A DNA stretch of 64,000 nucleotides from contig OZ252100.1 of NCBI GenBank assembly GCA_965248435.1, positions 1,088,001 to 1,152,000 of the forward strand, read 5' to 3'. The notes under the pieces were generated by a model. It was not told where the DNA came from. It was given only the letters and a program-made list of their open reading frames with translations, and searched no databases. Of the stretch, positions 32,076 to 45,509 are shown one piece after another; the first letter of the stretch is position 1, and each line of letters opens with the position of its first letter. This DNA is from Candidatus Latescibacterota bacterium (GTDB lineage: Bacteria > Latescibacterota > UBA2968 > GCA-2709665). The translations under genes were made by a program, and so were the position numbers.

Positions 32076-32791
32076 TCACGGAGCAAAGACCTGAACCCGG
32101 TTGTTAAACACGTCGGCTACGTAGATTCGACCCTGCGAGTCCAGTGCGATTCCTGCCAGCGACTCGAGACCTGCGTCCACTGGAAAGAAGGGGGAAAGGC
32201 CGGAAAACTGAAACACCCCCTCCTCTGTACCGAAATCACCCCACTCGGTGAGTAACTCGCCGTCCGAAAACACTTTCACTTCAGACTGGATCGCGTCGAT
32301 CACGAAGATGCGACCATCTTCACTGACGCGGAATCGACGATAAATCCTCGCATCTTCAAGGGCTTCAGACACCCATATGAGATCCTCTGCGACGGCCAAG
32401 TTGAAGGCAGCCGAGGGATCCTCGGCCTGAAATCCATATTCTCCAACCCGGATTCGCTCGTGCCCCACCTGGGAGCAGGTCGCCTCTGCAAGCCGGACGA
32501 AGAACTCCCGATCATCGGAAACGCCTGCCATAGCCTGCATGTCGACGAAGATGGGAAGAAACCGACACCGAGCCGACCGTTCAGGATCTGGAATAGGATG
32601 GATGTCTTCCCGCTCCGCCGTTCGCCGACGAAGAGGAGGACGCACCCCTCAGTTTCCGCGACCAATCGCTAACGGGCATAGGCGAAATCCTCCTCACGCC
32701 CGAAGAACAGGTTCGGGTCGCGGACTGGATTGCCCGTGATGAACGGATTCGGGGAAATGGGAGTAAATTCGGTCGTGTCTTCAGATCCCAT
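32076..32791 (-). pseudogene. Degraded chimera: AAA/STAND-like ATPase N-terminus joined to an NHL-repeat C-terminus
   Basis: 'NPFITGNPV...FFGRE', in-frame TAG at 32669-32671, Walker A 'GERRSGKTS', frameshift near 32558, then 'GIALDSQGRIYVADVFNNRVQVF'. Confidence 0.78.
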
Positions 32792-32829
32792 GGCCAGGCC
32801 TTTGCAAAAGCCCCTTTCTGAAAACCAGA

Positions 32830-32899
32830 AGAGCCCAACTGGAATCGATCCCGCCGGGCTCTGTCACATTGCTTATGTATGGTGGCCCCGAGGAGAGTC
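32830..32899. repeat. att-like junction 1: conserved hairpin + degenerate tRNA-Glu 3' end
   Basis: Hairpin 32830-32862 (loop ctggaatcgatccc); tggtggccccgaggagagtc at 32880-32899 matches 44953-44972 at 18/20. Confidence 0.78.
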
Positions 32900-33001
32900 C
32901 AAGGGAAAGCAACGCTTAAAGGACTCGTGTATCAGCTAGAAATCCAGCCAACCCGTCTCGACGCCGCACTCCCTCAAGTCATCTCCGCTTCTATTAATCA
33001 A

Positions 33002-33868
33002 TCATACCTCCACAACCATTCCATCATAAGCCAGAACGACGCCCCTCCGGGCCATATCCTCGACAATATCCTCGTGGGGTCCGACCTGCCTCAGGCTGAT
33101 GTGCGAGCCTACGATAGCCGTATCGCTACTGATAATCCCCGCTTGGCTAAGCTCAGAAATGGTGTGTTTAACCATGGAAAAATTCTGGTGCCCGGAGCGG
33201 GCCGGGTCGATCTCTAGATCCCCGAAGGTCGCATCGAATACGGCCAGATCCACCTGAAATCGGCGCAGGTAGTCCAGAGTCAGCGGTAGAATATAAGAGG
33301 AATCCAGGCCGTAAAAAACCGTTTTCCCGCCGCGCTCGAAGACATAATTCAGGGCCCGCTGCTCCCTGATCGTGTACTGCTTGTTGATGCAGTGATTGGC
33401 GTCCACTGCCGTGACCGTGGTGTCCCCAACCTCAAAACGCTCCTCCGGCCGAACCAGGTGGAAGTCGACATTTGGCTCGCTCCTCCGAGCGCAGAACCTC
33501 TTGATGCTCTCCTTCCACTCATAGCTCGCCGCAAACTCCAGAGCATCCCCCACCATCCCGTTGCCGTAGATCTGGAGCGTATGGCGCAGACGAGCGGCAA
33601 ATTCCAGAATGGCGACCGGCTGGAAATGATCCTGGTGTCCGTGAGTGATCAACAGGTGCCGGATCGTATCCCCGTTGACGCCGAATTTTCTTAACTGACG
33701 GTCGTCGTAGAAGTCTATCGAAATGTCTGGGGAAATCATGACAGAGGACGCTCGGCGCAGGTTCTTACCCCCGAGTTGCCGAGCCCGGACCAAGTGCTTG
33801 CTTTGGTCCTCCAGATCGTCCAGGAGGTGGAAATCGCCAGCCCCGGTGCCTAGAAACAGGAGCTTCAC
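33002..33868 (-). CDS. MBL-fold metallo-hydrolase (PhnP-like)
   Basis: 'LLFLGTGA', 'LITHGHQDH', 'ANH', 'DAT', 'SH', 'AYDGM'. Confidence 0.85.
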   Translation of the reverse strand: MKLLFLGTGAGDFHLLDDLEDQSKHLVRARQLGGKNLRRASSVMISPDISIDFYDDRQLRKFGVNGDTIRHLLITHGHQDHFQPVAILEFAARLRHTLQIYGNGMVGDALEFAASYEWKESIKRFCARRSEPNVDFHLVRPEERFEVGDTTVTAVDANHCINKQYTIREQRALNYVFERGGKTVFYGLDSSYILPLTLDYLRRFQVDLAVFDATFGDLEIDPARSGHQNFSMVKHTISELSQAGIISSDTAIVGSHISLRQVGPHEDIVEDMARRGVVLAYDGMVVEV

Positions 33869-33934
33869 GCTGTCCTCGAACCGGTCATAGCGCCCGGGCT
33901 CTGCAATCCCGAAACGTCGGCGAACGCAAGGTGC

Positions 33935-35887
33935 TCAAACTGAATGGTCGTCCTCCTTCAGATACTGGCGCAGCCAGTTAATTACGCGCTCGGCCATGTC
34001 CCGTACATGAGCTCGCTCGATGACTCCGTGGGGCTCTCGCGGGTAGACGATCAGCTCGACGGGTATGCCCTTGTCCTTCAGGGCGCGATAGAAGAGATAC
34101 GATTGCTCCACCGGTACGTCTTCGTCCACCTCGCCGTGGAGAATCAGGGTCGGCGTCTGCAGATTGTCGTAGTAGGACAGGGGTGAGAATCGTGTGTATC
34201 GCCCCTCGGCCTCGTAGGGACTGGCCTGGTAGTAGAGCTGGTCCCACGCCGGCAGGCAGCTCTTCCCGTGGAAGCTGAGCCAGTGCGAAATGCCGGCGCC
34301 CATCACCACGGTTCGGAAACGGTCGGTCTGCGACACCGCCCAGGCCGCTATGAAGCCTCCGTAGGACCAGCCGGAAAGGGCCAGTCGATCGGCGTCGGCG
34401 ATACCCGTCCCGATCAGCGAGTCAATACCCAGCATCATGTCCTCGAAGTCCTTGCCGCCCATGTCGCCGAGGTTGCTCTCGGAAAACTTCCGCCCCCAGC
34501 CGACGGAGCCGCGGTAGTTGGGCATGAACACGGCGTAGCCCTCGTTGGCCATCAGCTGGGCCCAGCCGCTGGCGGCGTAGTAACGCGAGCCACTCACACC
34601 GCTCGGCCCTCCGTGCACGCTCATCACCAGCGGGTAGCGCTTGCCGACCTCGTACCCCACCGGCTTTATCAGCAGGCCCTGCATCTTCTCTCCGTCGGCG
34701 CCCATCCATTCGTGGACGTCGGTCTCGCCGATGTCGATATCGGCGCTCTGCGGGTGCAGATTCGTGAGCTGAGTCCACTCGAGGGCGCTGTCCGCCGGGC
34801 GCCCGATCCACACGTCCAGCGGATTTTCGGCGTCCTCCAGCACCACGGCGAGGTCGCCGTTCTCGGCGTGGGAAAAGCGTGGCCAGTTCGCAATGGAGAC
34901 GGCGGCCTGCTGCCACCACAGACTGCTCCGCTCGCCGTCGGCGACACGGATCCGGTAGATCCCCGTGCCGCCCCGCTCGTGACCGATCGTCTGCAGCTCG
35001 CAACCGTCGGGCGACCAGGCCAGCCAGCCGATGCCGGCGACCATGCCCTCGGTGAGGTTGCGCGCCTCCCCTCCGGGCTCGAGCAGCCACGCGTCTCCGG
35101 CCACACACCCCCGATCACTCCAGGTCGAGGAGATGAAGGCCAGTTGCTCGCCGCTGGGCGACCACAGCGGTAGCGCCGCCTGGCACTCCGATTGCCACAG
35201 GGTCTCAACATCGCCGCCCAGATCGAAGCGCACCAGGCGGTTGCCGTACCAGGCGGATTCCGTGGGCAGATCGGACGCCACGGCTGCGATCTCCGATCCA
35301 CTCGGATGCCAGGCGAATTCCCAGATCTGCACCCCCGCCGTCGGTGAGGCACAGCACACTTCCCCTGTCGCCACCTCTACCGTCCACAGCCGCACGTATT
35401 TCAGATTCTGCTCGAAGGTGATAGCGTCGTCTTTGTCTTCGCGCCGCTGTCGCTCCTCGTCGGTCTCCGGGTCTTCCATCAGGAAGCCCAGAGCGCTTCC
35501 ATCCGGCGACCACTGCAGCGCGCTGAGACCTCGCGGCGAGGAGATCTCGCCCTTTATCTCGGTCAGGGCGATGGCTTCGCCGCCGCCGGCCGGGAGCAGA
35601 AACACCTGCCGCTGGCCCTCCTGCAGACGATCGGACAGAAAGGCCACTTGACGGCCGTCCGGCGACCAGCGGGGCAATGAATCGGTCCGCGGTCCGGCAG
35701 TGAGCTGGATCGCTGGCCCTCCCGCTGTACTCACCGTCCAGATGGTGGACCTGGGCCACTTGCTGTCCAACTTGAAGGAATCCCCGACTGTGAAGGCGAC
35801 CCGCGTTCCGTCGGGAGAGATCTGCGCGTCTTCGACACTCTTGAACGACAGTACATCTTCGGTTGTGAGAGGACGCCTTGAAAGCAT
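33935..35887 (-). CDS. S9 family peptidase (acylaminoacyl-peptidase / dipeptidyl aminopeptidase-like)
   Basis: WSPDG propeller repeats, 'VHGGP', 'NYRGS.G.G', 'GWSYGG', 'HGEVDEDVP', 'YPREPH'. Confidence 0.93.
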   Translation of the reverse strand: MLSRRPLTTEDVLSFKSVEDAQISPDGTRVAFTVGDSFKLDSKWPRSTIWTVSTAGGPAIQLTAGPRTDSLPRWSPDGRQVAFLSDRLQEGQRQVFLLPAGGGEAIALTEIKGEISSPRGLSALQWSPDGSALGFLMEDPETDEERQRREDKDDAITFEQNLKYVRLWTVEVATGEVCCASPTAGVQIWEFAWHPSGSEIAAVASDLPTESAWYGNRLVRFDLGGDVETLWQSECQAALPLWSPSGEQLAFISSTWSDRGCVAGDAWLLEPGGEARNLTEGMVAGIGWLAWSPDGCELQTIGHERGGTGIYRIRVADGERSSLWWQQAAVSIANWPRFSHAENGDLAVVLEDAENPLDVWIGRPADSALEWTQLTNLHPQSADIDIGETDVHEWMGADGEKMQGLLIKPVGYEVGKRYPLVMSVHGGPSGVSGSRYYAASGWAQLMANEGYAVFMPNYRGSVGWGRKFSESNLGDMGGKDFEDMMLGIDSLIGTGIADADRLALSGWSYGGFIAAWAVSQTDRFRTVVMGAGISHWLSFHGKSCLPAWDQLYYQASPYEAEGRYTRFSPLSYYDNLQTPTLILHGEVDEDVPVEQSYLFYRALKDKGIPVELIVYPREPHGVIERAHVRDMAERVINWLRQYLKEDDHSV

Positions 35888-36187
35888 GGAAGGTCCCTGT
35901 GTGAAGTTTGAGGAGCAGAGGCTTACGGGCACCCGCTATCTCGGGTCCGTGGGTCAGTTGACGAGGTGGGCGGACTTCATCGACACCCCCAAATATGTAC
36001 AGGGGTACACACGGTAAAACACTGCAGGACGACTGTGTCCCCACCAGTCCCAAAGTGAAGCCCGATCGCACGAGCAAAGCCTGCGACCGGTCACAAAACC
36101 TTCCCCTTTGCTGCGGTCTCTAGGTATCCAACGCAAAGCTCCTTGCAAACCCACTGCCGAACTCTCCGACACGCTCCAACCCGCGCC

Positions 36188-38032
36188 TTACCAGTAGATC
36201 CGCTCTCTCGAGACGAACCGTTCGATCTTCTGCCAGCGGGTGCTGTCGCGTCGATAATGGTCCCGTTGGTACAATGGACAGAGCCGCCCCGGCGGATCGA
36301 TGGCGACCACATCATTGCCCTTCCGCACCAGCGTGAACTTTTCCTTCTCGATCCACACCTCATCGGTCCGCTCCGCAATGGGGAAGGTCATCGTCGCCAC
36401 ATCCCCTGGTTTCACCTCGCCCACCTCCGCATAGCGACCATCCCGACCCACTGGACGATCATTGCCGTTCAACTGCAGTCTCACTTCATCGTGCTTCACC
36501 CACTCCGGGATGCGAATCGACAGCTCTACTGACTCCTTAATTCTCACATCCACCTGCCCTACGTAGGGGACGTGGCTATCAACATCCGCCCAGGGAGAGG
36601 CGCGATTCAGAAGCAGGTTCAGCCGCAACTTGCCAGAATCATGGGTCAAGATATTCTCCCACACGTAATAGAGGGCTCGACTGCCGGTTCCCGTGCAGCA
36701 GTGCATTATACCGTTGCCAACGCCTTCGTACCAGTCGTTGGCCTTGGGCCATCCTCCAAAGGCGCCGATGTTTCGCTCTATCACCCGCTCCGTGGTTTGA
36801 CCCATCGGATCCACTTCCGAGCGGGGCTGTCCCGCCGAATAGCGCCTGAGCCAATCGCCCTTCGCGGGCGTCAACTGCATTTCCACGAGCATGTTCCGCA
36901 CCCAACGATCCACGTCGTCGAGATAGTCTCCCACACCGGCCTCGGTCAGCTTCAGGCCCAGGGCGATCATGGTGGCCACCTCACAGATCTCGGAATGCTG
37001 CAGGTGCGGTGATCCTATAGTCTCCGGGAAATACCCGGTGAGCATTTCGCCGTTGGCCATGCCGTACTGAAAACCCCGGTGGGCGAAATCGATCATCTCC
37101 TGGTCTCCGCTGAGCATGCCATACTCCAGCATGGCCTGCAGACCGATGGCATGGTGATAGAAATGAGCTGTCGGTCTTTCCAAGGGACGGTCGGGCAAGA
37201 AGGTGCCGTCTGGAGCGAAGTGGTTGTTATGGTCCTTCAAATGGCGGCACAACTTGCCTGCCAGTTCCAGGGCCGGCTCGTAGTTCAGGGCCCGATACGC
37301 CTGCGCCAGCCCCACGGCGACCCAGCCGCCAAAGCTGCCCAGAAACGGACCGGGTATTTCTGCGTTCGGGTCTGTCTCCTCTCCCGGCAGAAAAATCGCC
37401 TGTGGGCAGTAAGCGTAATCTTCTCGCTCGATGGCACGCGCAGCCAGGGCATCGACCAGACGCTCGACAACCGACCGCCATACGTCACTACTGTCCCGAA
37501 GCGCGTAGAGGCTCAACGCACCCAGGGCACATCCGCAGTCAGCGGGAAGGGTAAGATGGTCCGCAGCCAAAGTGCGCTCGAGGTCATCATACTTGTCCAG
37601 ACGAACACGTGCCCACGGCCGGCCCCTTGTGGGCATGTAGAGCAGGCCGTCCGGCCCCTGCATGCGCAGGATCACCTCCATCCAGCGCCGCTCCACGTGC
37701 TCGTTCACGTCCGAGCCGCTCACGAGACGCACGAGTTGAAGCGACTCCATGAACTTCCACTGATTTTCGTGATCCCAGCATTGGTGCCGCATCATCGGCG
37801 GATTATGATTCAAGGTGGCGAGGAAATACAGTTCATAATCCGCGTCTGGATCGGTGGGGCCGGTGAGCCCACTTACCGCGAGTGCGGCCCGCTCCTGAAG
37901 ATCCAGGGTATCCGGCACCTGCGCCTCGTAACGCTCCCCGTTGCGGGCGGGAAGCTGAAACTCGGGGATGTCCGGACGGATATAAGCTATGGGGTCCCCT
38001 TGCCTCAGTTGCGTATTAGGCCTATCGCTCAT
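36188..38032 (-). CDS. (alpha/alpha)6-barrel protein, GH127/GH146-like glycoside hydrolase
   Basis: 'HSEICEVA' and 'MHCCTGTG' resemble the GH127 E-x-C and CC Zn/catalytic motifs; 'LSIRIPEWV' C-terminal sandwich. Confidence 0.62.
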   Translation of the reverse strand: MSDRPNTQLRQGDPIAYIRPDIPEFQLPARNGERYEAQVPDTLDLQERAALAVSGLTGPTDPDADYELYFLATLNHNPPMMRHQCWDHENQWKFMESLQLVRLVSGSDVNEHVERRWMEVILRMQGPDGLLYMPTRGRPWARVRLDKYDDLERTLAADHLTLPADCGCALGALSLYALRDSSDVWRSVVERLVDALAARAIEREDYAYCPQAIFLPGEETDPNAEIPGPFLGSFGGWVAVGLAQAYRALNYEPALELAGKLCRHLKDHNNHFAPDGTFLPDRPLERPTAHFYHHAIGLQAMLEYGMLSGDQEMIDFAHRGFQYGMANGEMLTGYFPETIGSPHLQHSEICEVATMIALGLKLTEAGVGDYLDDVDRWVRNMLVEMQLTPAKGDWLRRYSAGQPRSEVDPMGQTTERVIERNIGAFGGWPKANDWYEGVGNGIMHCCTGTGSRALYYVWENILTHDSGKLRLNLLLNRASPWADVDSHVPYVGQVDVRIKESVELSIRIPEWVKHDEVRLQLNGNDRPVGRDGRYAEVGEVKPGDVATMTFPIAERTDEVWIEKEKFTLVRKGNDVVAIDPPGRLCPLYQRDHYRRDSTRWQKIERFVSRERIYW

Positions 38033-38304
38033 GGCATTGTCCCCTCCTCTTTTTCGTCTCCCGTAAATTAAAAGTATCTTTAAATCTAACGACTCATCGG
38101 GCAAACAACGGTGGAACCGACTGTATCCTTGAGTATGGAAAATGGCTGCCGCAACGACGGAGATCGAGGGTCTGATAGTGGGCTTCGCCACGTGTTTCGA
38201 GCCCGACTGTGTCACGCCGGTCGATCTGCGCCTGTATGGAATGCTTATACAATGTACTCCAAATGAATATCACCGAAATCCGCATCCTCAGGGAGAAAAA
38301 AGGG

Positions 38305-38368
38305 AAAGTCCTGCTGGAATCGAATCCCGCAGGACTTTTAGAGCCTTGTTTTTGGTGACCCCGAGGGG
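38305..38368. repeat. att-like junction 2: conserved hairpin + tRNA-Glu 3' end
   Basis: Hairpin aaagtcctgc-tggaatcgaatccc-gcaggacttt at 38305-38338; tggtgaccccgagggg at 38353-38368 is an exact 16-bp match. Confidence 0.85.
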
Positions 38369-38791
38369 TCACGCACAAGTCGCAAACACTTTTGGGGACC
38401 TCTACGCGCTGGAGAAAACGGGCTTCCTGTACGTCGGACCTGCGTGTCGGCAGGCAGCATGAGGCTAGGACTGGATTTTCCGCTCAAAGGAGGGTAGGTA
38501 GCCCCGGTTTCGCAAGCGCACAAAGATAGCCTCCACACGTGCAAATTCCCAGAACAAAAAGGCATCCTCGCGAATTACTACCTCTGAACCGCATTCGCCT
38601 GCACGAGCGACTCACTCCTGATTCGCGTTCCAAGACACACCTTGCAACCCTCATCCTACCTGCATATCTTACCGTAAATTAGTGACTTCATGCTCCGAGG
38701 CTGAAGACGGGACGAACAAATCGGACACCTGTTGAGGGGCACGCTTCGGAGAGAGGTGTGCCCGATTCTCGTGGAGATCTGGCTCTCTTCT

Positions 38792-41700
38792 ATGGTTACT
38801 TCTGTTCGCATATTGCTTGTAGGCTTCTGGATCTCCGGATTTGTCCTCTCAGTCGGAGCTGCGCCGGGGGACATCACCACCGTGGCCGGTGGAGGCGTCG
38901 GCGACGGGCGTCCAGCGACTAATGCGGGCTTGAATGTCCCTAGTAGGCCATTCTTGGATGCGGCGGGCAATCTCTATATCGCGGATACGTTTAATCATCG
39001 GATCCGGAAGGTGGATAGGTCAGGCACCATCACCACCGTGGCGGGAAACGGGTCCGCTGGTTTTTCCGGCGATGGGGGTCCTGCGACCCGTGCAAGCTTG
39101 AATAGACCCTTCGGAGTCTTCGTTGATGAGTCAGGCAATCTCTACATTGCGGATACGGACAATCACCGGATTCGCAAAGTAGATGCGTCGGGCATCATTA
39201 CCACCGTGGCAGGAACTCTCTTCTTTGGTTTTTCCGGCGATGGGGGTCCAGCGACCCGCGCAAGCTTGAATAGTCCTAACGGAGTCTCCGCGGATATGGC
39301 GGGTAATCTCTATATTGCCGAATTTGAAAATCACCGCATCCGCAAAGTGGATACGTCGGGCACCATCACCACCGTGGCGGGAGATGGGACCGCTGCTTAT
39401 TTCGGTGATGGGGGCCCCGCAACGGATGCGAGTTTGGGTTTTCCTTTTGACGTTTTCGTGGATATGTCAGGAAATCTTTACATTGCAGATACGGGCAATA
39501 ACCGAGTTCGCAAAGTGGATACGTCGGGGACCATCACTACCGTGGCAGGAAATGGGACCCATACTTATTTCGGTGATGGGGGCTCTGCAACGGATGCGAG
39601 TTTGGCTTTTCCTTATGGTGTATTCGTGGATCGTTCAGGCAATCTCTATATTGCGGATACGTTTAATAATCGGATTCGGAAAGTAGATCCGTCGGGCACT
39701 ATCACCACCGTAGCTGGAAGTGGGGACTCCTTTAGTCCTTTAGCCGATATAGGTCGTGCAATTACCTTTAACCTATGGGCGCCCAGAGGGATTTTCGGGG
39801 ACGGATCAGGCAATCTCTATATTGCGGATACGTTTAATCATCGGATTCGAAAGGTAGGCCCAGGAGGTGATATCAGCACTGTAGCTGGAGGTGGTTTTGT
39901 CGGCGATGGAAGTCCGGCGACCCACGCAGGCTTGTTCGGCCCTCAAGGCATATTCGTCGACGGGTCGGGAAATCTCTATATCGCCGATCGGGGAAACAAT
40001 CGGATTCGGAAGATAGATGGGACTGGCACGATCACCACCGTGGCGGGAAATGGAAGGATTCGTTTTCGCGGGGATGGAGGTCCGGCAACCAGTGGGAGGG
40101 TGTGGGAGCCTGGAGGCGTTTTCGGAGATCGATCAGGCAATCTCTATATTGCGGATACGTTTAATGATCGGATTCGGAAAGTAGATCCGTCGGGCACTAT
40201 CACCACCGTGGCGGGAAATGGGAACCCTACATTTTCTAGCGAGGGGGGGCCGGCGATCGGTGCAAGCTTGTTTGGTCCTTCTAGCGTTTTTGTAGATAGG
40301 TCAGGCAATCTCTATATTGCGGATACGTTTAATCATCGGATTCGCAAGGTACATCCCTCGGGCGCCATCACCATCATCACCACCGTGGCGGGAAATGGGA
40401 CCCGTGGTTTTTCCGGGGATGGGGGTCCCGCGATCCGTGCAAGTTTGACTTTTCCTTTCGACGTTTTCGTAGATGGGTTAGGCATCCTCTATATTGCGGA
40501 TAAAGACAATCACCGGGTTCGGAAGGTGGATGCGTCGGGGACGATCACCACCGTTGCGGGAAATGGGATCCCTAGTTTTTCCGGCGATGGAGGCCCGGCG
40601 ACGCGCGCGAGCTTGGTTGCACCCAATAGCCTCTTCGTAGATGGGTCGGGCAATCTCTTTATTGCGGATAGAGGCAACAACCGGATTCGGCGAGTGGAAG
40701 GCATTGCGGCACCTCCCAACTTGGTGGTGGGTGTTTTCGAGCCGCCAGCTCTCGTATCTTCCCTGCCGGGGCTTGGACCTGCTTCTCCGGGTGTAGGGCC
40801 AACGCTTTCCGGTCCGCTTCCCATCCTCGGCCCGGGGCTGAACGATCCGCAGGAGGCGGGCACCATTCGAACTATCGCGGGAGGCGATGTTGGTGATGGC
40901 CGGGGCGCCCTGGAGGCAAACCTCCTTTTTCCAAACGATGTTGTTACCGACCAGGAGGGCAACCTCTACATCTCTAGCGGGAGCAACAACCGGGTGCGCC
41001 GCGTCGATGCCCTCACCGGTCTGATCAGCACCGTCGCAGGAACCGGCATCCGCGGCTTCTCCGGCGACGGAGGCAGCGCCGTAGACGCCAAACTTGCTTT
41101 CAATGTTGGTCTTGCCATCGACAGTGCCAGCAACCTCTTCCTTGCGGATGCCGCCAACCACCGCATCCGCCGGGTAGATGCTCAAACAAGCATTATTACA
41201 ACGGTCGCCGGAACAGGTGAGCCCGGCTTCTCCGGGGATGAGGGACCGGCAGTCAATGCGCAACTTTTGTTCCCGGAGGACATAGCTGTAGATCGCGCAG
41301 GAAATCTTTTCATCGCTGACAGGAGCAACCATCGTGTCCGGATGGTCGATTCATCTACCGGACAGATCGTCACTGTAGCAGGCAACGGGGCCCCAGGGTT
41401 TGCGGGAGACGGAGGGCATGCGCTCGCTGCACAGATAGAAGTCCCCGAGAGAATCGCCGTCGATAATTCGGGAAATCTCTATGTCTCAACGGGCAGCCGC
41501 ATCCGCCGCATCGATGCAAAGACGGGCACCGTGACCACAGTCGCGGGCACTACCACCGGCTTTTCCGGAGACGGTGGCCCGGCAACGGAAGCGCAATTCA
41601 GCGACTCTCAGAGAATTGCTATAGACGCACAGGGCAACATCTTCGTGGCGGATCAGGGCAATCACCGCATCCGGAAAGTCGATGCCCAGAGCGGGATTGT

Positions 41701-43087
41701 CACCACCCTGGTCGGCACAGGTAAGTTGGGCTTTTCCGGAGACGGTGGTCCGGCTGCCCAGGCCCAGCTCTTTTTTCCAGAAGCTGTCGCCTTAGACAAC
41801 AAGGGAAGCCTGTTGATTGCAGACCAAGGGAACAGTCGCATTCGAAAGGTGGTCCTTCGAACAAACACCATCACTACTGGAGCGGGCGGGGGTGTAGGCG
41901 ATGGACGGCCCGCATTACAGGCACAGCTTGGCTTTCCGAGGCACATCGTTCTGGATGACTTGGGCAATCTCTACATTGCAGACCGCAGCCATAACCGCAT
42001 TCGAAGAGTCGATGCGAAGACCGGACTCATCAGCACGATCGCAGGTACAGGTATTCGCGGATCTACGGGAGACGGTGGACCGGCCACAAGCGCCCTGATT
42101 GCATTTCCATTCGGCCTGGCCGTAGATCGTGCAGGAAACCTGTTTATTTCTGATTTCGAAAACGACCGCATCCGGAAGACCGATCTCAAGACAGGCATCA
42201 TCGCAACGGTTGCAGGAGCCGATACAGCAGGGTTTTCCGGGGACGGCGGGCAAGCTGTGCAAGCTCAACTCGACGATCCATTAGGCCTCGCTCTCGACAG
42301 TGCCGGCAACCTCTTCTTTGCAGATGCCGAGAACCACCGTGTCCGGCGTGTGGATACGAAAACCGGTGTGATTACCACCATTGCAGGCACGGACACGGAA
42401 GGACTCTCAGGAGATGGCGGTCCAGCGACAGCGGCGGCCTTGTTGCATCCCCGGGATGTGGCCGTGGACGCCGCAGATAACCTGTTTATCGCGGATACTT
42501 TCAACGACCGCATCCGGAAGGTCGATCTCAAGACAGGCATCATTACAACGGTTGCAGGAGCCGATACAGCAGGGTTTTCCGGAGACGGCGGGCCCGCTGT
42601 GGAGGCTACACTTAGTTTTCCATCATCCATTGCTCTGGATGCCAAAAGTAACCTGTTTATAGGCGACCTTGGCAACGACCGTATCCGGAAGGTCGATGCC
42701 AGCACGGGCATCATAAGCACGGTTGCCGGCAGCGGGACACGCGGATTTTCCGGGGACGGCGGGCCTGCTACCAAGGCGGCCTTTTTGGGGCTCTGGGGGG
42801 TAGCGATCACGCCTTCGGGAGACCTCCTGATCTCCGATGCCACCAATCATCGAATCCGTCGTGTAGCGGGCATCGCTGCGCCTACGACGCATGGGGATGC
42901 CGTGGTTAAGACTTCCGATTTCAACGGAGATGGAACGGTAAACTTTGAGGATTTCCTTGAATTTGCGCAGAATTTCAGCAAGAACCAGAGCGATCCGGAT
43001 TTCGACGCGACGTATGATCTAAACGACGACGGGGAGGTGAATTTCATGGACTTTTTCCAGTTTGCCCAGGCCTTCGGTCAGGCCTGA
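38792..43087 (+). CDS. Large secreted NHL-repeat (teneurin-like beta-propeller) protein with C-terminal EF-hand/dockerin-like tail
   Basis: Signal peptide; about 23 'GNLYIAD..NHRIRKVD..G.ITTVAG.G..GFSGDGGPA' repeats; Pro-rich linker; 'SDFNGDGTVNFEDF..YDLNDDGEVNFMDF'. Confidence 0.9.
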   Translation: MVTSVRILLVGFWISGFVLSVGAAPGDITTVAGGGVGDGRPATNAGLNVPSRPFLDAAGNLYIADTFNHRIRKVDRSGTITTVAGNGSAGFSGDGGPATRASLNRPFGVFVDESGNLYIADTDNHRIRKVDASGIITTVAGTLFFGFSGDGGPATRASLNSPNGVSADMAGNLYIAEFENHRIRKVDTSGTITTVAGDGTAAYFGDGGPATDASLGFPFDVFVDMSGNLYIADTGNNRVRKVDTSGTITTVAGNGTHTYFGDGGSATDASLAFPYGVFVDRSGNLYIADTFNNRIRKVDPSGTITTVAGSGDSFSPLADIGRAITFNLWAPRGIFGDGSGNLYIADTFNHRIRKVGPGGDISTVAGGGFVGDGSPATHAGLFGPQGIFVDGSGNLYIADRGNNRIRKIDGTGTITTVAGNGRIRFRGDGGPATSGRVWEPGGVFGDRSGNLYIADTFNDRIRKVDPSGTITTVAGNGNPTFSSEGGPAIGASLFGPSSVFVDRSGNLYIADTFNHRIRKVHPSGAITIITTVAGNGTRGFSGDGGPAIRASLTFPFDVFVDGLGILYIADKDNHRVRKVDASGTITTVAGNGIPSFSGDGGPATRASLVAPNSLFVDGSGNLFIADRGNNRIRRVEGIAAPPNLVVGVFEPPALVSSLPGLGPASPGVGPTLSGPLPILGPGLNDPQEAGTIRTIAGGDVGDGRGALEANLLFPNDVVTDQEGNLYISSGSNNRVRRVDALTGLISTVAGTGIRGFSGDGGSAVDAKLAFNVGLAIDSASNLFLADAANHRIRRVDAQTSIITTVAGTGEPGFSGDEGPAVNAQLLFPEDIAVDRAGNLFIADRSNHRVRMVDSSTGQIVTVAGNGAPGFAGDGGHALAAQIEVPERIAVDNSGNLYVSTGSRIRRIDAKTGTVTTVAGTTTGFSGDGGPATEAQFSDSQRIAIDAQGNIFVADQGNHRIRKVDAQSGIVTTLVGTGKLGFSGDGGPAAQAQLFFPEAVALDNKGSLLIADQGNSRIRKVVLRTNTITTGAGGGVGDGRPALQAQLGFPRHIVLDDLGNLYIADRSHNRIRRVDAKTGLISTIAGTGIRGSTGDGGPATSALIAFPFGLAVDRAGNLFISDFENDRIRKTDLKTGIIATVAGADTAGFSGDGGQAVQAQLDDPLGLALDSAGNLFFADAENHRVRRVDTKTGVITTIAGTDTEGLSGDGGPATAAALLHPRDVAVDAADNLFIADTFNDRIRKVDLKTGIITTVAGADTAGFSGDGGPAVEATLSFPSSIALDAKSNLFIGDLGNDRIRKVDASTGIISTVAGSGTRGFSGDGGPATKAAFLGLWGVAITPSGDLLISDATNHRIRRVAGIAAPTTHGDAVVKTSDFNGDGTVNFEDFLEFAQNFSKNQSDPDFDATYDLNDDGEVNFMDFFQFAQAFGQA

Positions 43088-43096
43088 GCAAGGACC

Positions 43097-43175
43097 AGCC
43101 CTGCTGGAATGGATCCAACAGGGCTTCTATCGTCATCAGGTGTTTGCGAGTTCTTTGGTGACCCCGAGGGGAGTC
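43097..43175. repeat. att-like junction 3: conserved hairpin + tRNA-Glu 3' end
   Basis: Hairpin 43097-43125 (loop ctggaatggatccaa); tggtgaccccgaggggagtc at 43156-43175 is an exact 20-bp match to 44953-44972. Confidence 0.88.
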
Positions 43176-43422
43176 CACCGGTATGCAACGCTTGTGATAG
43201 CTCGAAATCCAGCTCTATTGCTGATGGAGCTGCGTGACGCAGCTTAGTCTGGCACCGCCTGATCCGACGTCACTTCAATTCCAGCAATCCCCTCCATAAG
43301 CATCTCTTGGCCGCCGTTCCTCGCCGTCGTATCTTGGGTTGCGATGTGCACCTATGTCACCATCCATAAGACACATTTGCTATCCACTGCTCTTCGCGGA
43401 AAACCAAAGGACGAGCCCAGCC

Positions 43423-44508
43423 ATGGACGAAAACCCTACGGTCAGCACCGTATTCGAGATCGAGCCGCCGGATCCACCCAACGACGGCATCATGTTCGTA
43501 GACCACGCCCGATCGGGCCGTAGTGGCCACCTGGGCCACGCGCTCGTTGAATATGCACCGGGGAAAATCCTGGCGTTCTACTCCAACTGCTCGGATAGGA
43601 ACGACGGACACACGGGGGACGGGTGGATGGAATACCGGCGTTCCGAAGACGGGGGACGAACCTGGAGCGCCGGCGAAGTGCTTGCCTACTCCAAGGCGGT
43701 CTACGACAGGAACGCTGGAAAGTCCGTCATGTGTGAGAATGCCGTGCGAGCCGACGACGGGGCGGTCGTCCTGTTCAACCTGGAGTGCGGGAACACGGCC
43801 GAAGAGAAGTGGGCGTGGGCGCCGCTGGACGTTCCCACGTGTCTTCGCAGTACGGATGACGGCCGTACGTGGGGACCTGCGGAACCGATGGGCGATCAAC
43901 CCGGCCGCATCTGGGATGCGATGGTTCACGACGGCAGCATCCTGGTTCTCGAGCTGTGCAACGACAGCTCGATCCAATGGTACGGCAACCTTCCCGAGCA
44001 CTTCTACGGGCTCTATGCAAGCACCGATCACGGGCGCAGCTTCGCCCTGCGGAGCAAGCTGCCGCTCGAGATCCAGTGTCGGGGCTACGGCGCCCTGTCG
44101 ATTCTCCAAGACGGCGGACTGATCGCCTACGTCTACAACATGGCCGACGAAAAACACCTGGACTACGTCATCAGTCACGACGGCGGCTACACCTGGAGCG
44201 ACGTGCAAACCGCGTTTTTTGAGAAGCAGATTCGAAATCCGCAGATGGCCCGCTTCAAAGGCGGATACGTCCTTCACGGACGGAGCGGAGCCCAGGGAGA
44301 AGGGAGCGGACATTTCGTACTGTATACGTCGGACGACGGCATCCACTGGGACTCGGGACGCTACCTGCGGATGCAGGAGGCGCGCGCCGGCGCATACTCG
44401 AACAATTTACGCGTGCACAGCCCCGATGCACCGGAACGCCTGCTGATCCAGGCTTCCCACGCGTACGAAGGATATATGACGAACATCCTGCACTGGTGGC
44501 TGACTTAG
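43423..44508 (+). CDS. BNR/Asp-box (sialidase-fold) protein
   Basis: Five Asp-boxes: SEDGGRTW, STDDGRTW, STDHGRSF, SHDGGYTW, SDDGIHW. Confidence 0.85.
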   Translation: MDENPTVSTVFEIEPPDPPNDGIMFVDHARSGRSGHLGHALVEYAPGKILAFYSNCSDRNDGHTGDGWMEYRRSEDGGRTWSAGEVLAYSKAVYDRNAGKSVMCENAVRADDGAVVLFNLECGNTAEEKWAWAPLDVPTCLRSTDDGRTWGPAEPMGDQPGRIWDAMVHDGSILVLELCNDSSIQWYGNLPEHFYGLYASTDHGRSFALRSKLPLEIQCRGYGALSILQDGGLIAYVYNMADEKHLDYVISHDGGYTWSDVQTAFFEKQIRNPQMARFKGGYVLHGRSGAQGEGSGHFVLYTSDDGIHWDSGRYLRMQEARAGAYSNNLRVHSPDAPERLLIQASHAYEGYMTNILHWWLT

Positions 44509-44568
44509 TGGAAGGTCCCACGGGCCTCAGATTTCGCCAGGTCACATGACTCTCGGAGGTCCGATGAC

Positions 44569-44871
44569 TCATCAAATTCACCGACAGCGGCAGCGTGACG
44601 GTGAATGCGGCCACCGAGGACTGGCAACGTCATCGCCGTGTCCGATACCGGCAAGGGCATCCCCTCAGACGAACCACCCACCATCTTCGACGAATACCGT
44701 CAGGCCGAAGGGTCCGAGAGCAGCGTGCAGAAGGGCACCGGGCTGGGGCTGTCGATTACGAAGAAATTCGCGGAGCTGCTGGGCGGGACGATCGGCGTGG
44801 TGAGCGAAGTGGGCAAGGGCAGCACGTTTACGGTGCGGGTGCCGGTTGAGTATGGCGACGGACAATCCTGA
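44569..44871 (+). pseudogene. Histidine kinase HATPase C-terminal fragment
   Basis: 'IKFTDSGSV' then a frameshift, then 'VSDTGKGIP..IFDEY.Q..GTGLGLSITKKFAELLGG..GKGSTF'; no N-terminus. Confidence 0.82.
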
Positions 44872-44903
44872 CCGCTGACCTCTGTCTTCTGCTCTCTAAT
44901 CAC

Positions 44904-44940
44904 AAAGGCGCCCCTTCGGTCTGGCCGAAAGGGCGCCTTT
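44904..44940. terminator. Bidirectional terminator downstream of tRNA-Glu
   Basis: aaaggcgcccc-ttcgg..ccgaa-agggcgccttt. Confidence 0.8.
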
Positions 44941-44952
44941 CATTGTCAAAAA

Positions 44953-45027
44953 TGGTGACCCCGAGGGGAGTCGAACCCCCGTTGCCGGATTGAAAGCCCG
45001 GTGTCCTAACCGCTGAACGACGGGGTC
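44953..45027 (-). tRNA. tRNA-Glu(TTC)
   Basis: Minus strand GACCCCG...CGGGGTC-A-CCA, anticodon loop ctTTCaa, GGTTCGACTCC T-arm. Confidence 0.95.
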
Positions 45028-45276
45028 ACCTTCCTCTTTTGACAACACTGGCGAATATATTCAAATCCCTCAGTTGAAGCAAGTTCTATTGGCTTGAATG
45101 GGAGCCATTTACGGTTCGAGGGGCGCCGATCGGGTATGAACAAGGTGCTTGACTTTCCCTGGCTCTTTATGTTTATTTAATGCCCCAAATTGACCAGGAA
45201 CCGCATTGTATCAGACCTTAAAAAGCCAATGGCCGGAGGAAACTTATTGAAGTTGCCTCTCAGATTGCCTCCATTT

Positions 45277-45350
45277 GGGCGATTAGCTCAGTTGGTTAGA
45301 GCGCTGGTCTCACATACCAGAGGTCACTGGTTCGAATCCGGTATCGCCCA
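45277..45350 (+). tRNA. tRNA-Val(CAC)
   Basis: GGGCGAT/ATCGCCC acceptor, CTGGT-ctCACat-ACCAG anticodon arm, GGTTCGAATCC; CCA not encoded. Confidence 0.94.
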
Positions 45351-45509
45351 TTCTTCAAAGCCTACCGACCCGCACCAGTCACGCAGGGTGGACTCGGGCG
45401 GTGAGAAAACGGAAGAGATGATCGAGTTTAGAAGGGTGCATCGAGAATCGATGCGCCCTTCTTTTTTGCCTTCCTGACAGAGGTTGTTCTTCCAAGGAGC
45501 GGAGCAGGA

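Follow-up and report, generated by a model that had tools for sequence, protein, structure and literature searches.

The repeated tRNA-Glu end and the cassettes it bounds

In this work, we examine a 64,000-nt stretch of DNA (contig OZ252100.1 of a Candidatus Latescibacterota bacterium), hereafter the window, in which the 3' end of a tRNA-Glu gene recurs several times and bounds three tandem gene cassettes. An original prediction had read these repeats as attachment (att) sites, each opening an in-frame peptide that reaches an ssrA-like Ala-Ala, and had proposed that an integrase or repressor reading through the att site of the circular form (attP) would thereby gain a degradation tag. We find that the repeats are probably the att scars of an accretion array at the tRNA-Glu gene, and that the peptides are most likely incidental to it.

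The tRNA genes were called by ARAGORN and the domains of the open reading frames (ORFs) by Pfam. The tRNA-Glu(TTC) gene lies on the minus strand at 44953-45027 and is intact. Its last 20 nt (44953-44972), which run from the T-loop to the CCA and read TGGTGACCCCGAGGGGAGTC on the plus strand, constitute the repeated core. This core recurs on the plus strand at three places: copy C (43156..43175) is identical to the tRNA 3' end, copy B (38353..38372) has its first 16 nt identical and carries 3 mismatches, all of them within the last 4 nt, and copy A (32880..32899), at the far end of a 12-kb insert, carries 2 mismatches. The window thus holds four matches to the core, to be compared with 0.01 expected from dinucleotide shuffles. 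In the whole genome, a search allowing up to 4 mismatches returned 14 places, of which 7 are true copies: the four of the window, two others at C1:5530877 and C1:5532674, and the 3' end of tRNA-Glu(CTC). The latter gene (C1:5629406-5629481) is the only other tRNA-Glu gene among the 48 tRNA genes of the genome. Both tRNA-Glu genes have an identical 30-nt 3' end, and the true copies of the core are confined to their two loci.

A GC-rich hairpin with a similar loop (CTGGAA..GATC) stands 15-30 nt to the left of each of the copies A, B and C. Hairpin A (32830..32862) is the native terminator-like hairpin of tRNA-Glu(TTC) and forms the chromosomal arm of the outermost junction; hairpin B (38305..38338) has the same loop and belongs to the same stem family, as does hairpin C (43097..43125). 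In a genome of the same genus (G001), a hairpin nearly identical to hairpin A directly follows tRNA-Glu(TTC), and the 16 kb fetched around this gene contain neither a second copy of the core nor cassette genes. This layout indicates that copy A and hairpin A are the original downstream flank of the tRNA gene, pushed 12 kb away. To the right of the tRNA pair, the gene is conserved in all 23 of the 23 relatives searched. The possibility that the hairpins are a genome-wide repeat was rejected: in a loose and crude scan of the genome, with the stems compared by eye, 33 matches to the loop motif had a stem of at least 5 bp, and only A, B, C and a fourth hairpin, D, which is found at the second tRNA-Glu locus, share the GC-rich stem.

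To the right of the core, units A and C have common DNA, as had been noticed for the first and third repeats in the original prediction. This shared DNA consists of GCAACGCTT, then AGCT.GAAATCCAGC, and forms a repeat family (D18) with 84% identity over 38 nt past the core. The element-side arm of A (32900..32947, plus strand) contains GCAACGCTT at 32909-32917. We would regard this shared DNA as an element-side att arm and not as a coding sequence.

The cores delimit cassette 1 (32900..38352), with three genes, cassette 2 (38373..43155), with a single one, and cassette 3 (43176..44952, 1.8 kb), with two genes and a terminator hairpin (44907-44937), this last cassette being present twice in the genome. 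A Pfam search of the 13 ORFs between 32880 and 44972 found no recombinase, no repressor and no other mobility gene in any of the cassettes, so the protein that had been imagined as reading through attP does not exist between the window repeats. Three tandem cassettes that are flanked by att sites and devoid of integration and transfer genes are a feature of cis-mobilizable elements (CIMEs).

The cassette genes, all assigned by Pfam, are of several kinds. Cassette 1 carries, all on the minus strand, an MBL-fold hydrolase (33002-33868), an S9 peptidase (33935-35932) and a GH127-like protein (36188-38215). A stretch of the GH127-like gene (36190-38065) has an 87%-identical copy at an unrelated place in G001 (L046:12247-14121). 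The similarity breaks off abruptly on both sides, at the stop codon and some 150 nt into the 5' part, which gives the gene the look of a one-gene cassette in which the N-terminus was exchanged. The G001 copy has neither core nor hairpin, and it is uninformative as a clue to hairpin B. Cassette 2 carries on the plus strand (38732-43087) the gene of an NHL-repeat (NHL/teneurin-like) protein of 1451 aa, whose C-terminus bears a dockerin and an EF-hand-like segment. This gene is made of about 18 units of 168-171 nt, which fall into two sub-families. In the contigs of public runs, skips from one unit to another are frequent inside the gene. Cassette 3 carries on the plus strand a BNR-repeat protein (43339-44508) and the 3' fragment of a gene with a histidine-kinase ATPase domain (44605-44871). 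This fragment, an ORF of 88 aa, covers only positions 37-110 of the 111 of HATPase_c, that is, the C-terminal two thirds, and represents a truncated gene, placed at the end of the cassette.

A second tRNA-Glu locus with cassette 3 and a large serine recombinase

The other tRNA-Glu locus of the genome carries the second copy of cassette 3. Positions 43154-44975 of the window match C1:5530875-5532696, 4.4 Mb away, and the two copies differ only at 44951, 44952 and 44973, the 1,795 nt of 43156-44950 being identical. The cassette is bounded by the core on both sides at both places, that is, at both tRNA-Glu loci, and such identical copies running from core to core are consistent with a site-specific movement. 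At the second place, the left flank is hairpin D (C1 ~5530820-5530860), whose stem is the same as that of the hairpin found after tRNA-Glu(CTC) in a genome of the same family (G002). The right flank, termed A', is the far end of a 97-kb island. The A arm (32880-32947) and A' (C1:5532674-5532741) are 89.7% identical, and a second block of 67 nt matches further in. The dinucleotide abutting the right-hand core is AA in the window (44951-44952) and TC at the second locus (C1:5532672-5532673).

Among seawater, marine and hydrothermal-vent metagenomes, several that come from different studies contain 0.25-0.64 of the sampled words of 42900-45100, and the metagenome contigs around cassette 3 are about 99% identical to the cassette. 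Within 32500-45400, the contigs of 4 public runs show no independent excision joint, contigs being unable to show rare circles. The only apparent att-to-att joint, from 44967 back to 32895 in run X15 (depth 10.4), was rejected: it is explained by the second copy, in which cassette 3 is followed by A', and the contig depth shows the skip of 32941-33017 that is expected from A'.

From A' to tRNA-Glu(CTC) extend 97 kb of mosaic island, with genes for a D5-type primase, HicB, a small resolvase, a DNA methylase, UvrD-like and RmuC-like proteins, an insertion sequence (IS), RadC, DUF6876, ThiF, and polysaccharide and efflux genes. The last gene of the island codes for a 547-aa large serine recombinase (LSR), P0001 (C1:5627856-5629499; L002:15857-17500), in which Pfam recognizes the Resolvase, Recombinase and Zn_ribbon_recom domains. 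The ORF of P0001 crosses the core and then runs for 31 codons antisense through the whole tRNA-Glu(CTC). It reads the core as N-G-D-P-E-G-S, one base off the V-T-P-R frame in which the Ala-Ala peptides had been read. Since this ORF lies across the att site, the C-terminal tail of the recombinase depends on the integration state.

P0001 has homologues with 44-53% identity in genomes of the same order. The tRNA scan covered 8 of the 12 homologue loci returned, and at 7 of these 8 a tRNA gene (Gln twice, Asn three times, Met and Glu once each) abuts the 3' end of the LSR gene; the eighth locus, that of a more distant homologue (33% identity), has no tRNA. No tRNA is found either in the 9.5-kb locus of a 54%-identical homologue from a Latescibacterota metagenome-assembled genome. 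At all 7 loci of the relatives and at the own locus (8 of 8), the LSR frame extends 4-30 codons into the tRNA, coming from the 3' side. The integrase reading through attP that the original prediction had envisaged is thus encountered at the island LSR and at seven loci of relatives, and is missing within the window. Upstream of the tRNA end, at 10-12 nt, lies a DNA motif, (G/A)TTC(A/G)(G/A)(C/T)G, which is present whatever the tRNA and mostly codes for (V/I)QR. The codons GTT CAG CGA are seen at this distance in elements with different targets, and this is probably a recombinase-binding motif within the recombinase's own coding sequence. We also sampled the family more broadly: 210 proteins of the database reach E <= 1e-30, of which we looked at the 120 listed. 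Within the final 50 residues, an antisense T-arm motif is present in at least 70 of these 120, and all three frames relative to the tRNA occur among them. The clade is one of LSRs of mostly uncultured, mostly aquatic bacteria, which have attP inside their own gene and target tRNA 3' ends.

One relative, G030, has a 21.8-kb element bounded by 23-nt tRNA-Gln repeats, with the LSR at the tRNA end. Searches for distal att copies (20 nt with up to 2 mismatches; 14 nt exact) gave none for the G030 (Gln-ttg), G046 (Asn) and G027 (Met) elements, and only two attP sites could therefore be rebuilt. A dyad symmetry of the rebuilt attP was considered in a comparison by eye, its centre of symmetry falling inside the core, and was discarded: the P' arm motif GCAACGCTT, taken on the other strand, resembles the P-arm motif at 6 positions out of 9, which is too weak. 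Unintegrated close relatives of the LSR were found neither among 225 records from cultured phages (all below 60% identity, the best at 34.5%), nor among 115 plasmid records (all below 60%), nor in IMG/VR, and consequently no natural attP can be read from these three sources.

The Ala-Ala peptides and the origin of the repeats

In the three tRNA-derived repeats from which they had been quoted, the peptides read exactly as described, from one base before each copy. At unit C (43153..43247, plus strand), 30 codons end in ...RDAA and a stop. At unit B (38352..38462, plus strand), 36 codons end in ...RQAA and a stop, and they are the tail of a 106-aa ORF (38142-38462) that has no Pfam family and overlaps the start of the GH127-like gene. 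At unit A (32879..32968, plus strand), the two alanines are codons 29-30, internal to a 112-codon frame; the corresponding 112-aa ORF (32879-33217, plus strand) has no Pfam family and runs antisense into the MBL-fold gene. All three peptides are judged to be non-coding. The generalization that each att copy reaches a terminal Ala-Ala is therefore right for two of the three quoted copies, and wrong for A, for the tRNA copy and for A'. Indeed, in the same frame, the fourth copy of the window, that is, the tRNA itself, gives MVTPRGVEPPLPD followed by a stop, and A', which is 90% identical to unit A over 68 nt, stops after ...QLEV, so the two copies closest to each other do not have the V-T-P-R frame conserved. 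As for unit C, its Ala-Ala is due to a 17-nt palindrome (43228..43244), which gives Ala-Ala-stop in two frames of this unit. Genome-wide, Ala-Ala ends 817 of the 127,783 stop-to-stop frames of at least 25 codons (0.64%). In our judgment, the peptides are in all likelihood incidental by-products of translating the core and its arm.

The degradation switch was confronted with the junctions that circularization would create. No recognizable gene crosses those rebuilt for each of the three cassettes and for the array as a whole: upstream of the core they offer at most 73 open codons, which belong to ORFs that have no Pfam family and lie over real genes of the opposite strand. At the island, it is the LSR that crosses the site, and its tail can be read in both states. 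From the core on, this tail has 31 codons in the integrated form vs 13 in the excised one, so that integration lengthens it. On the island far-end arm A', the LSR frame ends in ...SPSESNA-stop; on unit A it ends in ...SPRESNA-stop, at the same TAA (32917-32919 in the A arm). In the rebuilt attP of G030, the LSR tail ends in ...ILYR. Both of the rebuilt excised tails extend only 4-6 residues past the core. Among the 120 listed family proteins, none ends in Ala-Ala and 12 end in a single Ala. The predicted switch is not borne out by these observations, since the LSR uses another frame and its tails end in ...SNA and ...ILYR, and the Ala-Ala endings are not conserved across more copies, A' ending in ...LEV and 0 of 120 proteins in Ala-Ala.

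The explanation that we favour is that of accretion. Mobile elements of the LSR type would insert at the tRNA-Glu gene's 3' end while carrying their own copy of its last ~20 nt. The element-side copy would restore the tRNA, and the displaced original end would stay at the far boundary, beside the old terminator hairpin. Each insertion bringing an element-side core, the tRNA is restored and a partial copy is left at the far end. In elements of this family, attP would lie within the 3' end of the recombinase gene. The three tandem cassettes of the window would have lost the recombinase, or never had one, which would make them similar to CIMEs, and the 547-aa LSR at tRNA-Glu(CTC) is most likely the enzyme acting on the window cores. 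We infer that P0001 made the window junctions and moved cassette 3, the tails having no function. Cassette 3 would have been copied recently between the two tRNA-Glu loci, which share the identical 30-nt 3' end, either through a circle of its own, or by being left behind after a composite had inserted and its island part had been excised.

Other explanations can be proposed for the same repeats. The scars could have been made by a classical tRNA-targeting tyrosine integrase, since lost from the window, with the position of the LSR being incidental. An identity of 16-23 nt running from the T-loop to the CCA is indeed typical of tyrosine-integrase islands, and the 97-kb island does contain a weak Phage_integrase match; a review likewise places tyrosine integrative mobilizable elements at tRNA 3' ends and describes the serine ones as disrupting protein genes (PMC5704250, in the available text). 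However, this match stands 17 kb from the junction, while the LSR abuts and overlaps the tRNA 3' end at 8 of the 8 tRNA-bearing loci, with four tRNA identities and the motif at a fixed distance. Moreover, the repeat-bounded 21.8-kb element of G030 has its LSR at the tRNA end, and islands of serine recombinases in which a tRNA-like 3' end is repeated over 20 bp have been described (PMC3146451, in the available text). We thus hold a tyrosine integrase to be an unlikely author of the scars. Another possibility is that the copies derive from a tandem of tRNA-Glu genes that have decayed, with a terminator hairpin to each of them, as might be suggested by the hairpin of the native family that precedes A, B and C. 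But each copy keeps only the last 16-20 nt of the tRNA, the similarity stopping at the same point; in G001, tRNA-Glu(TTC) is single and the insert is missing; the right arms of A and C find their homologue in the LSR island, at its far end, and not in a tRNA; and cassette 3 has apparently moved from core to core. We hold tandem decay to be very unlikely. Finally, the ORFs of 61, 106 and 112 aa could be real small-protein genes unrelated to recombination, since their frames are open and begin with ATG or TTG. However, Pfam assigns no family to any of them, and the search for relatives of the 61-aa unit-C ORF among longer proteins, where none of 93 candidates scored, brought no support, although this is weak evidence. 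Of the two larger ones, that of 112 aa runs into the MBL-fold gene in antisense and that of 106 aa reaches over the beginning of the GH127-like gene. In the paralogous copy A' the frame is interrupted, and no run resembling a Shine-Dalgarno ribosome-binding site is seen by eye upstream of these ORFs. We consider this the least credible of the explanations.

The degradation switch itself survives in one form, in which the island LSR would gain an ssrA-like ...DGAA end, resembling the ...MAA end of the host tmRNA tag, only upon excision together with the 1.8-kb cassette, since the C-type arm would then come after the outermost att site. Some observations speak for it: the LSR ORF crosses the core at the paralogous locus and in relatives, the C-type arm in the LSR frame ends in ...IADGAA-stop, and the mycobacteriophage BPs offers a precedent, with attP in its repressor gene and a viral form bearing an ssrA-like tag (PMC4557955, in the available text). 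By extension, the integration state and the identity of the accreted cassette would be written into the C-terminus of the LSR, as 31 antisense-tRNA codons, ...SNA or ...DGAA, and if the latter is a Clp degron, the cassette would tune the stability of the LSR. If true, this would amount to a state-dependent proteolytic control of a serine integrase. The endings found at the far-end arm, at unit A and in G030 do not conform to it, nor do the 120 family proteins; V-T-P-R is not the frame of the only LSR of the genome, the window junctions are crossed by no gene, and the Ala-Ala of unit C comes from a palindrome. We deem this form of the switch very improbable, and we would give the cassette-tuned extension equally little credence.

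Accretion driven by the LSR, with incidental peptides, has to accommodate several observations that weigh against it. Inside cassette 3, its two copies differ in nothing but the 2 nt next to the core; a crossover inside the core does not account for two adjacent junction changes with none elsewhere, and one may guess at a gene conversion between the junctions of both tRNA-Glu genes. The hairpins that close cassettes 1 and 2 are of the native tRNA-Glu terminator family, which is not accounted for either; speculatively, these cassettes may include DNA once located downstream of a tRNA-Glu gene and captured by excision from outer sites. The tyrosine-integrase match of the island (L006:16356-17669, 17 kb from the tRNA), even if weak, offers another recombinase, and catalysis at the cores is a putative role of the LSR. 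Concerning the peptides, a family member, P0039, reads the tRNA-Glu end as LVTPRGVEPPLPE, which is the V-T-P-R frame, and other elements may therefore use it. Two of the three tails ending in Ala-Ala-stop give a naive P of 1.2e-4, computed with a frame and a pattern that were picked after looking. Both open frames of the unit C arm, including that of the LSR, reach Ala-Ala-stop, and in a composite circle of cassette 3 and the island, the LSR would gain the ...DGAA end. The transfer-messenger RNA (tmRNA) of the host (C1:3129673-3130034) encodes the tag ANDNSYAMAA, and as this tag ends in ...MAA, an Ala-Ala end could be a degron in this organism.

Relation to known systems

The main value of this analysis is to show that the peptides are ordinary, being read off att sites and element-side arms. 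The presence of cassette 3 at the genes of both tRNA-Glu isoacceptors would provide a clean natural example of accretion and cis-mobilization. In addition, the recombinases of this clade, with a tRNA-embedded chromosomal att site (attB) that is present in nearly every genome, could serve as integration tools. The targeting of true tRNA genes (Glu, Gln, Asn, Met) by an LSR clade is somewhat unusual, because tRNA 3' ends are assigned to tyrosine integrases in the available text of a review on integrative elements (PMC5704250).

CIMEs and tandem accretion at att sites, in the ICESt1 family and others, are covered in the same review (PMC5704250). As in CIMEs, att sites stand on either side of the cassettes, genes for integration and transfer are missing, the tandem arrangement extends to an element with a recombinase that might act on the cassettes, and composite excision patterns are possible. 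The difference is that the cases described there mostly involve tyrosine integrases of Firmicutes (PMC5704250). Here, the mobilization would be deduced from one identical second copy. The tycheposons of Prochlorococcus bring cargo to tRNA genes, with tandem elements between partial tRNAs and decayed remnants (bioRxiv 10.1101/2020.12.28.424599, in the available text). Most of the 937 tycheposons use tyrosine recombinases, and 27 of them have an LSR (bioRxiv 10.1101/2020.12.28.424599). They can be likened to our array by description only, and differ in that the available text of this preprint holds no layout with the att site inside a gene (bioRxiv 10.1101/2020.12.28.424599).

Integrases whose own gene is altered by integration are also known. 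The rewriting of the P0001 tail may be compared with that of myxophage Mx8, in which IntP/IntX is reportedly a tyrosine integrase gene that has its own att site and is rewritten on integration. In archaea, the tyrosine integrases of the SSV type have a gene that contains its own att site and is split in the middle on integration (PMC5861418, in the available text). The likeness is that integration rewrites the integrase gene; the differences are that SSV relies on a tyrosine recombinase and that its gene is split in the middle, not only changed in its tail. In mycobacteriophage BPs, which uses a tyrosine integrase, the repressor gene holds attP, and the repressor carries its tag in the longer, viral form and is stable in the shorter form of the prophage (PMC4557955, in the available text). 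The island LSR resembles it in that attP is inside a gene whose C-terminus is changed by integration. Yet every tested feature differs, as the gene is that of the recombinase, the integrated form is the longer one and no Ala-Ala end is conserved.

The closest description in print of a layout with tandem islands and an att-overlapping serine integrase is that of the ssrA islands of Dehalococcoides. In the literature, with subscription journals mostly uncovered, this was the only case found of a serine integrase gene overlapping attP at such a site, and none was found for true tRNA genes. These islands are arranged in tandem, and their limits are marked by a repeat of 20 bp from the tmRNA gene's 3' end (McMurdie et al. 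2011; PMC3146451, in the available text). The gene of their 540-aa serine recombinase, dsiB, overlaps attP/attL and has a stop codon that depends on the context, a conserved motif starting with TTCAG adjoins the repeat, and fifteen islands that have no integration module are interpreted as cis-mobilizable elements brought together by accretion (PMC3146451). The authors also raise the question of whether the full function of DsiB is reserved for the circular form (PMC3146451). P0001 is likened to DsiB through its layout as described, not through a sequence alignment. The two systems share tandem islands, a 20-nt repeat and an LSR gene lying over the att site at the junction, with the LSR being in our case at the paralogous island and not in the window. 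They differ in their target, which here is a true tRNA-Glu, in both of its isoacceptors, in place of tmRNA, and in their host, which here is a marine bacterium of another lineage.

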